DNA of 60,468 nucleotides from Candidatus Omnitrophota bacterium. GTDB taxonomy: Bacteria > Omnitrophota > Gorgyraeia > 2-01-FULL-45-10. Below the pieces are notes generated by a model. That model saw only the letters and a list, made by a program, of their open reading frames with translations. It was not told the DNA's origin and did not search any database. The position numbers were made by a program, and so were the translations under genes. This document shows, piece by piece, positions 9,576-55,603 of the stretch. The first letter of the stretch is position 1, and the number at the start of each line of letters is the position of its first letter. Location of the stretch: contig JBAZUO010000008.1 in assembly GCA_041661345.1 (NCBI GenBank), positions 1 through 60,468 of the forward strand. The letters run 5' to 3'.

Positions 9576-9602
9576 CTTTACTTCTCACCCCCTTTCTAAT
9601 AC

Positions 9603-9643
9603 AAAAAAAACCATCCATAGCTTCTCTTTCAAGCTTTAGATGG
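9603..9643 (-). promoter_or_regulatory. terminator-like hairpin plus U8 inside the csp 5' leader
   Basis: Minus-strand RNA reads ccatctaaagctt-gaaagag-aagctatggatgg (11 of 13 bp) followed by UUUUUUUU. It lies ~30 nt upstream of the GGGGGTGA SD and the ATG at 9575. Confidence 0.45.
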
Positions 9644-9704
9644 TAGTATTTTTTAACCCAGTTTCGATCTTCAATAAATAGCTCATCCGCAAATAAGTTT
9701 GGCT

Positions 9705-9733
9705 AATATAACATACTAGTTGTTTTCTGTCAA
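9705..9733 (-). promoter_or_regulatory. sigma70-type promoter of csp (TTGACA-17-TATATT)
   Basis: On the minus strand, TTGACA (9733-9728), an exact 17-nt spacer, then TATATT (9710-9705). This predicts a ~120-nt 5' UTR, as is typical of cspA genes. Confidence 0.55.
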
Positions 9734-9743
9734 TATAATTTGC

Positions 9744-15853: not shown

Positions 15854-16207
15854 CTATTTTTTATCCAGCAATCTCAACCACTGCATATATATGTACTCGA
15901 GCAATCTTCCCTTATCCTGCCCGTCTATACTCTTAAATTTAACACCGGTTTCAAATTTACTCTCATCATTGCTTAGGCCCTTCTGCCATGCAACCTCAGC
16001 CGATGCGAATATGGGGACATTGTCACCCGGTACATCCATTGACAGATTGATCTCGGTTCCTTCTCTGAGTTTCTTATCCAGAATAAGTAGGGCGCCCTCT
16101 TTTGATATATTCCGTACTTTGTAGGGTGCCTTGCACCGCTCGCTGATTATCTCGCAGATCGCATTCAACGCGGTTTCAAACCGTAAAAATTTTCTTCTTT
16201 CCGTCAC
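15854..16207 (-). CDS. PilZ domain-containing protein
   Basis: 117 aa. RRKFLR and NISKEG motifs. Confidence 0.8.
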   Translation of the reverse strand: MTERRKFLRFETALNAICEIISERCKAPYKVRNISKEGALLILDKKLREGTEINLSMDVPGDNVPIFASAEVAWQKGLSNDESKFETGVKFKSIDGQDKGRLLEYIYMQWLRLLDKK

Positions 16208-16222
16208 GTCAACCCCTCTTCT

Positions 16223-16262
16223 AAAAAATAAGGGGATAAAAAAGGTTTTTTTCTATCCCCTT
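16223..16262 (-). terminator. intrinsic terminator after the TIGR04073-like gene
   Basis: Perfect 9-bp stem aaggggata (16230-16238) / tatcccctt (16254-16262). It is followed on the minus strand by AUUUUUU (plus-strand A-run 16223-16228). Confidence 0.6.
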
Positions 16263-16290
16263 ATTTCTATCCTGTAATTCCGGATACAAC

Positions 16291-32225: not shown

Positions 32226-32299
32226 TGGAGCGGGTGAAGGGAATCGAACCCTCGTATCTAGCTTGGGAAGCTAGCGCTCTGCCATTGAGCTACGCCCGC
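32226..32299 (-). tRNA. tRNA-Gly (anticodon CCC), CCA encoded
   Basis: Reverse complement GCGGGCGTAGCTCAATGGCAGAGCGCTAGCTTCCCAAGCTAGATACGAGGGTTCGATTCCCTTCACCCGCTCCA folds as a cloverleaf. The anticodon loop is TTCCCAA. It is very similar to E. coli tRNA-Gly(CCC) apart from a C6-A67 mismatch. Confidence 0.9.
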
Positions 32300-36077: not shown

Positions 36078-36196
36078 AATTAAGGTATCCCTCAAGGGGC
36101 TCGTGCCGGCAGGAACAGCGCTCCCCGGCAGGATGCCCTTGCCTGCCTATCCTCCCGGCTAAATTTTTTGATCCTTCAGCAATGTGATGTGGCGAC

Positions 36197-36319
36197 GTGG
36201 TGAACAGGGCCTTAAAATTTTTTATGGCTCGGTCCGCTGCTGCTAACTGGCGGCGGCATAAAAAATTTTACTGGAGCGAGGTTTTCCGCTGGAGAAAACC
36301 GAACGTCCCTGTGAACCAC
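36197..36319. ncRNA. candidate structured RNA (three-way junction), class and strand unknown
   Basis: P1 is 36197-36209 / 36307-36319 (13 positions, 11 Watson-Crick pairs plus a tandem G-A/A-G on plus). There is a 14-bp perfect AT stem 36213-36226 / 36257-36270, capped by 36234-36241 / 36249-36256 (two G-U on plus). A hairpin lies at 36280-36286 / 36294-36300. Confidence 0.35.
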
Positions 36320-36355
36320 TCGACACAGCACATTCTCTTGCTGTATTGAAAAAAT

Positions 36356-37696
36356 TCAAATAACGACTTTGTGGGACAGTCCCCTACGATTAGCAACTTT
36401 GGACGCTGGGGACAGTCCCTTCAAACATTGCTCCGAAACTTTGATAGAACAGTACTCACCGCACATTGTGCATACGTCTTTCGCACCTGGTGTCGACATC
36501 TTCCTGTACTTCTTCGGTTTTGACTTATCTAACGCAAGCTTGAATTGCTCATCCCAGTTTCTCGCTTTTCTCGCCTTCGATATTGCTATATCCCAATCGA
36601 GGGCGCCTGCTACACCCTTTGCAATATCGGCCGCGTGAGCCGCGATCTTCGATGCTATTACGCCTTCTTTAACGTCGTCTAGCGTAGGAAGCCTTAGATG
36701 CTCCGATGGCGTTACATAGCAGAGGAAATCAGCGCCCTTACTTGCCGCGAGCGCCCCGCCTATTGCGGCCGTTATGTGGTCGTATCCGGGCGCAACGTCC
36801 GTAACGAGCGGGCCCAGGACATAAAATGGTGCGCCGCTGCATATCGATTTTTCGAGAAGTACGTTAGCTTCTATCTGGTCTATCGGAACATGCCCGGGCC
36901 CTTCTATCATCACCTGGACGCCTCTCTTAAGCGATGCCTTCTGCAGTTCTCCCAATGTGATCAGCTCTGAAATTTGAGGCCCGTCGGTTGCGTCGGCTAC
37001 AGAACCCGGCCTTAAACCGTCTCCAAGGCTCATAGTAACGTCATATCTCCTGGCGATATCCAAGACTTTATGGTAGTTTTCGTAAAAAGGATTTTCCCGG
37101 CCATTTTCCGTCATCCACTGCGCGATGAGCGCGCCGCCGCGGCTGACGATATCGAGGACGCGGCCATTTTTCGCAAGCATCTTAACTGCGTTTCTCGTTA
37201 CGCCCGCATGAATGGTGAAAAAATCAACCCCGTCGGAAGCCTGCTCTTCGAGCACATCGAGCATGAATTCCACAGGTATCGATTTGATGGAGCCGAATTT
37301 TTTAACGCCGTTTATTACGATCTCGTATAGCGGGACTGTGCCGACCGGTACACCGGACGCCCTAAGGACCCTGCGCCTCGTCTCCTTAATATCGCGGCCC
37401 GTCGAAAGGTCCATGACGGCATCCGCTCCGGCATCTATGGCCGCAAGGGTCTTAACGATCTCTTTTCCTATATTGGAAGAATCCGCGGATGTGCCTAAGT
37501 TCGCGTTCACCTTGGTCTTCAGGCCCTGGCCGATACCGCAAGGCGCGGTTAGCCTATGTTTAATATTCTTTGGGATTACGATGCGGCCTTTGACGATTAA
37601 TTTGCGGATGGTTTCCGGATCGGCGCGTTCGCTTTTGGCGACGAACTTTACCTCTTTGGATATCAGGCCGTTCCTGGCGATTTCAACTTGCGTCAT
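36356..37696 (-). CDS. thiC: phosphomethylpyrimidine synthase
   Basis: 446 aa (short anaerobe-type ThiC). C-terminal CTMCGEYC Fe-S motif and a conserved core (GPGHVP, LGPLVTDVAPGYDHI). Confidence 0.93.
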   Translation of the reverse strand: MTQVEIARNGLISKEVKFVAKSERADPETIRKLIVKGRIVIPKNIKHRLTAPCGIGQGLKTKVNANLGTSADSSNIGKEIVKTLAAIDAGADAVMDLSTGRDIKETRRRVLRASGVPVGTVPLYEIVINGVKKFGSIKSIPVEFMLDVLEEQASDGVDFFTIHAGVTRNAVKMLAKNGRVLDIVSRGGALIAQWMTENGRENPFYENYHKVLDIARRYDVTMSLGDGLRPGSVADATDGPQISELITLGELQKASLKRGVQVMIEGPGHVPIDQIEANVLLEKSICSGAPFYVLGPLVTDVAPGYDHITAAIGGALAASKGADFLCYVTPSEHLRLPTLDDVKEGVIASKIAAHAADIAKGVAGALDWDIAISKARKARNWDEQFKLALDKSKPKKYRKMSTPGAKDVCTMCGEYCSIKVSEQCLKGLSPASKVANRRGLSHKVVI

Positions 37697-51837: not shown

Positions 51838-52008
51838 TTAAAATGACTTATACCCCATTTTTTTCTTGCGGCGTTTCCGCTCGCTGGGTTTTTCGTAGTG
51901 CTTTCTTGCCTTGAGCGTCTTAAGTATTCCTTCGATCTCTATCTTCTTCTTGAAACGCCTCAACGCCTTTTCCAACGGTTCGTTCTCGCCCACGTTGATC
52001 TTCGGCAT
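51838..52008 (-). CDS. rpsU: 30S ribosomal protein S21 (56 aa)
   Basis: Below the ORF-track cutoff. Manual translation gives MPKINVGENEPLEKALRRFKKKIEIEGILKTLKARKHYEKPSERKRRKKKMGYKSF*. GGGGTGA SD upstream. Confidence 0.92.
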   Translation of the reverse strand: MPKINVGENEPLEKALRRFKKKIEIEGILKTLKARKHYEKPSERKRRKKKMGYKSF

Positions 52009-52069
52009 TATTTTATCACCCCTTCAGATTATTATTTTGTCTTATTCTAACAGCAAGATGGATCGTTTG

Positions 52070-52453
52070 TCAAGTTTTTAGCTTAGACCAGAACTCCTCC
52101 GACTTTACAGGGGTAGCGTAAGAGCTTCTCGCGTAATAGTAGATATCTTTATCTGAGCTTACAACCCTCAAATTTCTCCTCTGTCTCTCCGGGGTCTTAT
52201 CTATATACCTCTTTATATATTTGTCGGCATCCCTGGCTGCCACAATAGATAACTGCTCGTGGTTTTTATGATCGAGCCCCAAGAATTCGTTTGTGCTGTC
52301 GAAGACAAGTATGACCGGGTCTTTACGCTTAACCTGAAATTGCACCAGGCGCGATATCAACGCCGCGGCGGACTCGAGAGAGTCGCCTTCATCATCGTTG
52401 ATATCCGACGCATCGCTTCTTATCAAATTCCATCCATCGATTATTATGGGCAT
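52070..52453 (-). CDS. NYN/PIN-like (YacP-like) domain protein
   Basis: 127 aa. MPIIIDGWNLIR...ILVFDS...VVSSDKDI acidic-residue pattern of NYN ribonuclease-like domains. Confidence 0.6.
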   Translation of the reverse strand: MPIIIDGWNLIRSDASDINDDEGDSLESAAALISRLVQFQVKRKDPVILVFDSTNEFLGLDHKNHEQLSIVAARDADKYIKRYIDKTPERQRRNLRVVSSDKDIYYYARSSYATPVKSEEFWSKLKT

Positions 52454-52456
52454 ATA

Positions 52457-52705
52457 CTACTGCATCGCGCCCTTCAACTGGCTCATTTCGATCTTGAAGA
52501 GCCTGTAGATTTCAACCGAAGCATGGAACATCCACATGGTCATCAATATAAGCAGGATCGTGAGAACGATCTTATGCCATTTTTTAAAACCGGGGCTTAT
52601 CCATACAAGCGGTAAGGCGAATGGCCCAGCTACGAATATCCATACGATCACCATCGCCGGCTTAAGATACCACTTTATACTCGGTTTATCAATCTCTACG
52701 CTCAT
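52457..52705 (-). CDS. small two-TM membrane protein
   Basis: 82 aa with two clear hydrophobic helices. AGGAAA SD ~9 nt upstream. Confidence 0.55.
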   Translation of the reverse strand: MSVEIDKPSIKWYLKPAMVIVWIFVAGPFALPLVWISPGFKKWHKIVLTILLILMTMWMFHASVEIYRLFKIEMSQLKGAMQ

Positions 52706-52722
52706 ATTTTAAATTTCCTATT

Positions 52723-52955
52723 AAATTTTCCGGGTCCTGCCGCGACCTCGTCTTTTCTTTCTAGGGCTCGCACGGGGTTCACAATAGATAAGGTAAATCA
52801 CACGTTGTGTCTGTATGCCCGCTAGGATTGCCTACAACAGAACCAGCGTAACTGGGGCGCGGGCTTACTATTATGCAATCCTAAACGGCGGGCACCCCCA
52901 TCCCATGCTCACCTCTCATCAATAAAAGCCTTCGGTCGCGTCACCCGTAAAATTT
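52723..52955. ncRNA. candidate structured element, domain 1 (nested long-range helices)
   Basis: Outer pairing: 52723-52729/52949-52955, 52731-52735/52943-52947, 52741-52747/52934-52940. Inner pairing: 52817-52822/52888-52893 and 52825-52831/52875-52881. All are Watson-Crick. Confidence 0.35.
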
Positions 52956-52992
52956 CCTGCTCTCCTCAATAAATTTTTCGCTTCTTAGTATT

Positions 52993-53232
52993 GGCGGAAC
53001 TTTTGTACGCCGCGGCGTTATTCTATAGCCGCCCGGCCAGTGGGGTTGAGCCGTGAAATTTTGCTGAGGTTTAACTTACTCCCCACATAGATTGACGAAA
53101 CTGTGAACGAAAGAGCAGATATATACGAAATAACTAAAACAAAATACAAATATCCTGGAAAAGCAAAATTAGGCGAAGCCCCCTGGCCGGGTGACTAACA
53201 GCATATGAGACGGATAGTGCAAAAGTTCCGCC
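52993..53232. ncRNA. candidate structured element or MITE-like inverted repeat, domain 2
   Basis: 13-bp perfect pairing 52993-53005/53220-53232, and 9-bp perfect pairing 53032-53040/53183-53191, separated by spacers of 26 and 28 nt. Local hairpins 53040-53045/53081-53086 and 53045-53052/53068-53075 (two G-U on plus). Confidence 0.35.
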
Positions 53233-53263
53233 TACTTGTCCAACACGAAAAATTTCAGCCTTC

Positions 53264-54691: not shown

Positions 54692-55603
54692 TTAAAATCC
54701 GCCGCCCCCACCACCGCCGCCTCCGCCGCCCCCACCACCGCCGCCGAACCCACCGCCCCCGAATCCACCGCCGCTCCATCCGCTATCGCTGGAGCCACCG
54801 CTCGAGCCGTAAGTTAAAAAATTACCTCGTTTGTCACGCGGAAGTCTGTGCCAACTGCCTAGGCGAAACGCTGAGACGATCATATAAATTATAAAGAGCA
54901 CGCAAGCCAAAATACGGGATAGCTTAAGAAAAATAATTGCACATGCCGAAATAACTAAGAATACACCGGCGACAACAGGTGTAAATAGGCTGGCAAAAAA
55001 AAGCATGAACGCCAGCTTAAAGATCTCATCCGGGTGTTTTCCCTCTCCTGCGTAATTATCAGCGGGCCTTATATTGACGCCATTCAGGCTATCGAGGGTT
55101 ATTCCGGCGTCCTTGGCAATTACGCCGGAGATGAAAGATATTCCGTAATATAGCCCCTTTTCATAGTCGCCTGCCTTAAAGCTTGGCACCATATAATTGC
55201 GGCCGATCTCACCGCAAAGGCCATCCGGTAATATTCCTTCCACGCCGTAACCGGTTTCTATGCGCCAGCGCCGCTCTTTAACGGCAAGAAGAACCAACAC
55301 ACCGTTATCTTTCCCTTTTTTTCCCGGTTTCCAATTATCAAAGAGCAGTCGCGCGTAATCTTTTTCGTCGTAAGGCGTAATCGATTGAGCCGTAATTACA
55401 AAGATCTCCGCCGAGGTCTTCTGTCTCAACTCTTCAATGAGCGCCGTCAGCTTATCGCGATATTCCTGCGAAATTACACCGGCATAGTCATTGACCCACC
55501 CACCGGGCTTTGGCAGATCTTCCGCGCCGAAAGCCGCGCAACAGCAGACCGTAACACTGAACAGCGCAGTAAATAAAAATTTCTTTATCATTTCTAAGAT
55601 CAA
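54692..55603 (-). CDS. TPM domain-containing protein (YgcG-like) with C-terminal poly-glycine tail
   Basis: 303 aa. Signal peptide, TPM domain (WVNDYAGVISQEYRDKL...), TM helices, then GGGFGGGGFGGGGGGGGGGGGGGGGF. This is the typical LemA-TPM gene pair. Confidence 0.85.
   Translation of the reverse strand: MILEMIKKFLFTALFSVTVCCCAAFGAEDLPKPGGWVNDYAGVISQEYRDKLTALIEELRQKTSAEIFVITAQSITPYDEKDYARLLFDNWKPGKKGKDNGVLVLLAVKERRWRIETGYGVEGILPDGLCGEIGRNYMVPSFKAGDYEKGLYYGISFISGVIAKDAGITLDSLNGVNIRPADNYAGEGKHPDEIFKLAFMLFFASLFTPVVAGVFLVISACAIIFLKLSRILACVLFIIYMIVSAFRLGSWHRLPRDKRGNFLTYGSSGGSSDSGWSGGGFGGGGFGGGGGGGGGGGGGGGGF
54695..54784 (-). repeat. GGN-codon low-complexity tract encoding the poly-Gly tail
   Basis: The plus strand is a near-continuous run of ccgccg/ccacca triplets at the 3' end of the TPM gene. 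Confidence 0.8.

Follow-up and report, generated by a model that had tools for sequence, protein, structure and literature searches.

A probable two-module structured RNA with a conserved core and exchangeable hairpin modules in the largest non-coding gap of an Omnitrophota contig

The largest non-coding stretch in a 60,468-nt contig of a Candidatus Omnitrophota bacterium (JBAZUO010000008.1, positions 1 to 60,468, hereafter the window) is a gap at positions 52706-53263, between the stop of a 268-aa DUF748 gene (53264) and the ATG of an 82-aa membrane-protein gene (52705). We find that this gap is probably (roughly 60%) the minus-strand template of a two-module structured RNA of about 535 nt, a member of an uncatalogued family with a conserved core and swappable peripheral modules. 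The DUF748 gene lies upstream, and the downstream operon encodes the 82-aa membrane protein, an NYN/YacP-type protein and ribosomal protein bS21. The proteins of the window have their closest named homologues in Candidatus Omnitrophota metagenome-assembled genomes. Nearly all of its genes are on the minus strand, and those around the gap all share the strand of the RNA, on which every feature described below also lies unless stated otherwise. Read 5' to 3', the whole structured region (52723-53256) consists of Domain 2 enclosed by a closing helix P0 (P0[Domain 2]P0'), a 14-nt linker and Domain 1. The 3' module, Domain 1 (52723-52956, about 235 nt), would define the family, and the 5' module, Domain 2 (52971-53255), is replaced in other genomes by hairpins of other types and sizes; each module is expected to fold independently. 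That a functional RNA structure is formed on this particular strand is strongly supported in the case of Domain 1 and well supported in that of Domain 2.

The gap was first singled out by an original prediction, made from the letters alone, which described nested long-range complementarity in two adjacent domains and proposed a large structured RNA or leader, a MITE (miniature inverted-repeat transposable element), or an invertible DNA stretch. It was right that no other non-coding stretch of the window is larger, and all the helix segments it listed for both domains are indeed present, the five in Domain 1 corresponding to P1, P2 and P5. It overlooked P0, helices P3, P4 and P6 of Domain 1, the assignment of the RNA to the minus strand, and a second related module at 36151-36360. 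The pairing exceeds chance: the minimum free energy of the gap has z-scores of -4.1 (minus strand) and -4.0 (plus strand), and none of 100 shuffles folds equally well. More decisive than z-scores for real pairing is that the helices are kept by compensatory changes in relatives.

Relatives of the gap were found by two routes. Comparison with 80 Omnitrophota loci around DUF748 homologues, using nhmmer and BLASTN, returned gap-like sequence in locus L001 only, where Domain 1 and the outermost bases at either end of Domain 2 are matched but the bulk of Domain 2 is missing; none of the other 79 loci contains Domain 1. Scanning 241 million Joint Genome Institute (JGI) metagenome contigs with an exact 20-mer of the Domain 1 core (52885-52904, overlapping the 5' strand of P5) gave 18 matches, 11 of which are true Domain 1 homologues; the remaining 7 were discarded as chance matches within high-GC coding DNA. 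The same 20-mer had no match in the viral contigs scanned. The one neighbour of a homologue that was tested shares 90% identity with a protein from Omnitrophota. No contig has more than one copy of Domain 1, and the two-part architecture of a Domain 2-type module followed by Domain 1 is homologous in L098, L085, L094, L095, L093 and L001. Both domains are structurally conserved with covariation in other genomes, which bears out the proposal of a large multi-domain structured RNA. Of two loci from the same metagenome, L099 and L091, one contig ends and the other begins within Domain 1, with an overlap of about 85 nt, an assembly break that reflects either strain variation or a repeat.

Domain 1 forms a rod of helices P1-P5 with a three-way junction of P4, P5 and the small P6, in which P1-P4 make up the closing stem. 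The 5' strand of P1 (52943-52955) pairs with 52723-52735 over 13 nt at 92%, with compensatory changes in 4 of 12 pairs, and that of P2 (CGCGACC, 52934-52940) pairs with 52741-52747, all 7 pairs showing compensatory changes; an inverted-repeat search also pairs 52738-52747 with 52934-52943. P3 (GGCUUU, 52925-52930) pairs with 52750-52755, and P4 (GGUGAGCAUGGG, 52902-52913) with 52765-52776, including a tandem G·A in the window at a position that is Watson-Crick paired in L095. The 5' strand of P5 (GUGCCCGCC-GUUU-AGGAUUGC, 52875-52895) pairs with 52815-52831 and is near-invariant in sequence across the family; here the inverted-repeat search pairs 52823-52834 with 52872-52883. P5 is topped by an apical hairpin that varies in the alignment (52832-52874). 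The P6 hairpin (52780-52809), in the 3' strand of the three-way junction, has compensatory changes in 2 of 3 pairs and is flanked by conserved AUACAGACAC and GUGAAC. The joiners AUGGGGG, AUACAGACAC, GUGAAC and GCAGGAC are, like P5, near-invariant. Loops and junctions of Domain 1 are more conserved than its stems, and its outer helices covary. The sequence CAUGGGAUGGGGGUGC presumably resembles the start of 16S rRNA helix 44.

Covariation and strand asymmetry support this fold. The Domain 1 alignment comprises 11 sequences in 5 clusters that are 55-94% identical, and its consensus has 55 base pairs, with 95.7% of cells paired. Changes on both sides were found in 19 of the 55 pairs, compared to 8.2±1.8 in 500 shuffles (none of which reached 19) and 3-8 pairs in controls with slid partners. 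Among the cells of the alignment G·U outnumber A·C by 35 to 3, identifying the minus strand as the RNA strand. Scores of a Domain 1 covariance model show the same asymmetry: they are 193-254 bits on the RNA strand and ≤36 bits on the other, the window itself having 247 bits on the minus strand and, on the plus strand, just a partial match of 17.5 bits. The window and L001 share 84% identity in Domain 1, compared to 67-71% in the DUF748, membrane-protein and NYN genes that flank it. At one point of the 3' strand, L084 and L095 have insertions of about 50-170 nt, yet P1 and the GCAGGACCC joiner are retained; tolerance of insertions at fixed points with P1 and the joiner kept is typical of functional RNAs.

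Domain 1 is not a small protein gene, because open reading frames (ORFs) over its conserved blocks shift or stop between homologues, the antisense 'MPARIA...' frame and the sense frames alike. A protein-database search with the ORFs overlapping Domain 1 ('MPARIA...ILNGGHPHPML' and 'GRAWDGGARRLGLH...') gave no match at E≤10. The antisense ORF has 36 aa (MPARIA...ILNGGHPHPML, 52815-52925, plus strand) and runs opposite the core of Domain 1. In other homologues the frame is broken, and the ATG owes its conservation solely to that of the RNA sequence; automatic annotation may therefore call a gene here by mistake.

In Domain 2 the helices covary while the sequence is poorly conserved. This variable hairpin module is closed by the A/U-rich P0, whose 5' strand AAAUUUUUCG (53246-53255) forms a 10-bp perfect inverted repeat with its 3' strand CGAAAAAUUU (52971-52980), thereby joining the very start of the gap to the stretch just before Domain 1. 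The P0 bracket is also present in L001, L093, L086, L090 and L110. Inside it, the 5' arm of helix A (GGCGGAACUUUUGCAC, 53217-53232) is 16 nt long and 94% complementary to the 3' arm (GUACAAAAGUUCCGCC, 52993-53008), with the 13-nt core GGCGGAACTTTTG exact on both arms in a pattern search. Helix A is kept with different, covarying sequences in L093, L094, L095, L085 and L102, and just its 3' arm is retained in L001 and L098, as a local hairpin GGCGGA...UCCGCC. Helix B pairs 53176-53197 with 53026-53047 (22 nt, 82%, including a 9-bp perfect stretch) and shows compensatory changes in L098 and L085, the two loci in which helix C (AAUUUUGCU, 53162-53170, pairing with AGCAAAAUU, 53057-53065) is also kept. 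The A/U-rich apical region (53066-53161) is variable in sequence, and a 43-aa ORF inside it is not conserved. A bracket motif, GAAAUUUUNCG, also opens Domain 1, and 5 of its 17 matches in the window fall within the gap. Some hairpin module precedes Domain 1 on the same strand in every homologue; its size and type vary, being small in L001 and L090, of a different 'type B' in L086, and several in a row in L093.

The invertible-segment proposal had the stretch between the 13-bp GGCGGAACTTTTG repeats flipped by site-specific recombination, making the gap a DNA switch. A 13-16-bp inverted repeat is indeed present, and a module of the same type lies in opposite orientations in L095 and L102. However, the orientation of the interior relative to Domain 1 is the same in the window, L098 and L085, the arms covary between genomes like an RNA helix instead of being conserved like a recombinase site, the difference between L095 and L102 spans the whole module including sequence outside the arms, and no invertase or recombinase gene lies nearby. 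We consider a switch barely credible.

Gene context bears on the leader variant of the structured-RNA proposal, in which the gap would be a cis-acting leader or riboswitch for the membrane protein-NYN-bS21 genes. Domain 1 does stop 17 nt short of the start codon (ATG) of the 82-aa gene, close upstream of the ribosome binding site (RBS) of that gene, which begins 4 nt past P1; the spacer between them (52706-52722) carries the Shine-Dalgarno sequence AGGAAA, and no terminator was found between the RNA and the gene. In 10 homologues, however, the flanking genes differ and are often on the other strand. Neither DUF748, the membrane-protein gene nor NYN was found beside the true JGI matches, L001 alone shares the downstream gene of the window, and the other homologues precede unrelated or opposite-strand genes. 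The JGI neighbours, read from translations, are UvrA with an ABC ATPase, ComF with CspA, a helicase with macro-Nudix, HU, LpxB, RlmN and DprA, which look like unrelated housekeeping genes; in four homologue loci both neighbours are on the opposite strand, as read from ORF tables. Relatives also have the same operon without any gap. These varied contexts argue strongly against a cis-regulatory role, which we regard as extremely unlikely.

The membrane protein, NYN/YacP-type and bS21 genes (51838-52705) form a conserved Omnitrophota trio whether the RNA is present or not. According to the title of a 2025 paper, bS21 is reportedly a component of the RNA-protein complex of OLE, a large bacterial RNA. 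A membrane protein is likewise involved with OLE. The resemblance is probably coincidental, since the RNA is unlinked to the trio in other genomes.

The statement that no known RNA family is recognisable in the gap agrees with searches of Rfam 15. At the gathering threshold a tRNA at 32229-32299 is all that passes in the whole window, and the gap and four homologues have no family match; at E≤10 these five sequences gave scattered microRNA- and snoRNA-type hairpin matches, none of them recurring. A group I or II intron was set aside, there being no match to an Rfam intron family and, by eye, neither a domain V-like hairpin nor a GUGYG 5' end. RNase P RNA, tmRNA, signal recognition particle RNA, ribozymes like that of hepatitis delta virus and retron RNA were set aside, and so was a transposon guide RNA for want of an adjacent TnpB, IscB or reverse transcriptase gene. 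Literature searches turned up no relevant report of an RNA motif or a 6S RNA in Omnitrophota.

Among known RNAs, 6S shares several traits with Domain 1, which might then be a 6S-type RNA beyond the reach of the Rfam model, a rod whose central open region binds RNA polymerase holoenzyme. The 5' and 3' ends of Domain 1 pair into a long closing stem, followed by an asymmetrically open interior and a terminal stem; it is single-copy, occurs in varied contexts and sometimes lies inside an operon, and the window is without any Rfam 6S match. 6S is sometimes processed from mRNA, as in Escherichia coli, where it is released from a dicistronic transcript. Nevertheless, four homologues searched at E≤10 gave no match to RF00013 or related models. 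On its 5' side the would-be bubble measures just 6-7 nt, and a three-way junction describes the region better than the symmetric bubble of 6S does. At 235 nt plus the attached Domain 2 the RNA is longer than 6S (about 150-200 nt), and a near-invariant P5 sequence is unexpected for 6S. Finally, its sporadic distribution and its absence from close relatives at the site are unlike a near-universal regulator. A 6S-type RNA is accordingly a highly improbable identity for Domain 1.

The modules themselves are gained, lost and reoriented as units at gene junctions. The second Domain 2-type module of the window, of type B (36151-36360), is a long hairpin closed by an A/U-rich helix; it stands alone, without Domain 1, directly after the stop of a 446-aa ORF (36356-37696), which we take to be ThiC, and before the next gene. 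This module is 80.6% identical over 196 nt to a module at the DUF748/membrane-gene junction of L110, a locus without Domain 1, and is homologous to the module 5' of Domain 1 in L086. The two Domain 2-type modules of the window share no sequence detectable by BLASTN. Lone modules of this kind thus occur at 36151-36360 and in L110, and a further one in L102. At the DUF748/membrane-gene junction the two genes abut or overlap in most of the other DUF748 loci: the site is empty, with overlapping genes, in L081, L082 and L083, holds only a 12-nt spacer in L111 and 24 nt in L002, and is occupied by an unrelated 85-nt palindrome in L108 and L109, a type B module plus a small hairpin in L110, a small module plus Domain 1 in L001, and Domain 2 plus Domain 1 in the window. 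In a DUF748 protein tree the window groups with the empty-site genomes and L001 falls in another clade, a pattern that needs repeated gain or loss.

Further inserts were seen at these and other junctions. The palindrome of L108 (1451-1553, and the same in L109) is about 85 nt long and near-perfect (TATATAGGGACGTTTTCA...TGAAAACGTCCCTA); its presence implies that this junction collects palindromic inserts. All of the macro-Nudix orthologue loci L102-L107 are without Domain 1. A conserved palindrome closed by GAAAUUUUUUG/CAAAAAAUUUC, module 'X', was found in L102 (4160-4435, plus strand), where it follows a Domain 2-like module and takes the place of Domain 1, and in L093 (1961-2182 in the original coordinates), where it lies upstream of the RNA in opposite orientation; it has no Rfam match. 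Two extra matches of the bracket scan (L094 7675-7958 and L037 746-877) were rejected, as they look like coding DNA matched by chance.

Several of these observations weigh against a structured RNA gene as the explanation of the gap. First, the whole insert is missing from the nearest relatives, L081 and L082, whose flanking genes have 80% nucleotide identity, the DUF748 stop overlapping the next start, and other relatives hold different inserts or parts of that of the window. Second, L095 and L102 have the same flanking pair (DUF167 and macro-Nudix) with a homologous module in opposite orientations. Third, the distribution is sporadic, the 20-mer occurring at just 11 real sites in the JGI contigs; scattered presence, absence from the nearest relatives and other inserts elsewhere are more in keeping with a mobile or accessory element than with an RNA gene for housekeeping. 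Fourth, the modules are bracketed by similar A/T-rich inverted repeats, some with TA ends, which recall bacterial MITEs. Fifth, the Domain 1 sample is small, with its 11 sequences in 5 clusters, and the invariance of the 5' strand of P5 arises in part by construction, since P5 served as the search pattern. Lastly, the ends of the RNA, its processing and any protein partner are what we infer from sequence.

These points are the core of the most serious alternative, that the gap holds a transcribed MITE-type repeat of the kind represented by ERIC, Correia/NEMIS and CIR. Domain 1, Domain 2 and the module at 36151-36360 would then be non-autonomous insertion modules with A/T-rich ends GAAATTTTNCG...CGNAAAATTT, co-transcribed at gene junctions with at most an effect of their hairpins on mRNA stability, and their fold would be a need for spread or a side effect. 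Bacterial MITEs are A+T-rich, have TA ends, fold by pairing of their 5' and 3' ends, are transcribed together with adjacent genes and serve as substrates of RNase III or RNase E; ERIC and CIR repeats are conserved between species (PMC2229807). ERIC/IRU, Correia/NEMIS, CIR, RUP and BOX elements resemble the modules in having A/T-rich inverted ends (some with TA), an end-to-end fold, a location in transcribed gaps right after genes, either orientation, and variability among relatives.

Much of the material agrees with such an origin. Filled and empty sites occur among close relatives at one junction, with the palindrome in L108/L109 and composite parts in L110 and L001. Modules occur alone and in varied combinations, and L095 and L102 carry one of them in opposite orientations between one and the same pair of genes; filled and empty sites, free-standing modules and orientation change are also found with ERIC, Correia and CIR. 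The bracket repeats are common to several module types, and 5 of the 17 matches to their motif in the window lie in the gap. Terminal inverted repeats are present, in P0 as a perfect 10 bp and in P1 as 13 nt at 92%, the L110 module having a 13-bp perfect terminal repeat (TAAAATTTTTCGC/GCGAAAAATTTTA), and the modules of L110 and L086 end in TA...TA. The insert follows directly past a co-oriented stop codon in the window, L001, L086, L095, L102 and L110. In L001 and L110, moreover, the spacer GGAGAAGGCTGA, which contains the Shine-Dalgarno sequence, is imperfectly repeated on both sides of the insert, and TAGGAA flanks the insert of the window; the repeated spacer could be an old target-site duplication or could reflect the need of the downstream gene for an RBS.

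The original suggestion that Domain 2 is a MITE therefore stands in part: the modules act as insertable units, but the GGCGGAACTTTTG repeats that it took for termini are internal, forming helix A. Near-identical copies and a clear target-site duplication are both lacking, and BLASTN and pattern searches found no other copy of the gap sequence in the window. ERIC- and Correia-type repeats are <200 bp with many similar copies per genome, whereas the modules here have 200-290 nt and are single-copy per contig. About 540 kb of other Omnitrophota DNA has no bracketed modules, every module type is conserved between genomes and not within one, no transposase, integrase or reverse transcriptase gene was found near any copy, and the duplicated spacer is explicable by the RBS need just mentioned. 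Unlike such repeats, Domain 1 exceeds 200 bp and combines a multi-helix three-way junction with invariant, unpaired joiners and a strand-specific G·U excess that extends even to the bracket helix; joiners, junction and G·U excess imply selection on RNA. A MITE-type repeat is thus a real though unlikely alternative, and it is not fully exclusive of a structured RNA.

For the two-module structured RNA, the most economical mechanism would be co-transcription followed by release at the closing helices. The RNA would most likely be transcribed within a DUF748-RNA-membrane protein-NYN-bS21 message, because no promoter or terminator stands out in the gap, where a scan gave counts not above those of shuffles, and because the neighbours are all on the same strand. 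The long double-stranded closing helices (P0 with A, and P1 with P2) are plausible cut sites for a double-strand-specific RNase, and cleavage there would free a stable Domain 1 RNA and split the operon message into two halves. Domain 1 would then act in trans, most likely bound to protein.

A variant would join the two kinds of explanation: the modules may constitute a protein-free mobile RNA element, made of folded, A/U-bracketed units that move between stop/start junctions of operons, with Domain 1 as the active part, a ribozyme or a guide/recognition RNA serving a factor encoded elsewhere. This idea, drawn by analogy with group II introns lacking an ORF and orphan transposon guide RNAs, would jointly explain why junction nucleotides are deeply conserved, why each contig has a single copy, why filled and empty sites are clean and why modules are placed in either orientation; we consider it improbable.

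Three observations elsewhere in the window are recorded here. A TPM-domain protein at 54692-55603 has a long glycine-rich tail (...GGGFGGGGFGGGGGGGGGGGGGGGGF) that gives rise to a local spike in GC and skew. The second-largest apparent gap, 354 nt at 15937-16290, starts with a strong terminator-like hairpin, AAUAAGGGGAUAGAAAAAAACCUUUUUUAUCCCCUUAUUUUUU, and the rest of it may mostly be a PilZ-like reading frame that was left unannotated. In a 168-nt gap (9576-9743), positions 9700-9740 hold a near-consensus promoter of the sigma-70 type (TTGACA, 17 nt, TATATT). All three are on the minus strand.

The closest counterparts of a two-module structured RNA of this kind are OLE, GOLLD, ROOL and the raiA motif, which like the RNA of the gap are hundreds of nucleotides long, have many covarying helices and highly conserved unpaired nucleotides, and are lineage-restricted orphans that are not tied to one downstream gene. 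GOLLD in particular has a conserved core with a variable, modular remainder. The RNA of the gap differs from all four in having no sequence or structure match in Rfam 15 and in belonging to the phylum Omnitrophota. Its modules also occur separately, with polymorphism of presence, absence and orientation at orthologous sites, which is not described for OLE or raiA.

Large structured bacterial RNAs without known function are rare, and earlier ones led to riboswitches, ribozymes, RNA-only assemblies and guide RNAs. The candidate described here belongs to a phylum without cultivated members and with little representation in databases of RNA families, and it has an unusually well-conserved core of 235 nt. 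It provides a covariance model for use on all Omnitrophota genomes and a compact core for structural and pull-down work. It bears the signatures of a functional RNA, and at gene junctions its modules are also gained, lost and reoriented as units. Whether modules of structured RNA can spread with no protein of their own is a question for which it offers a test case.

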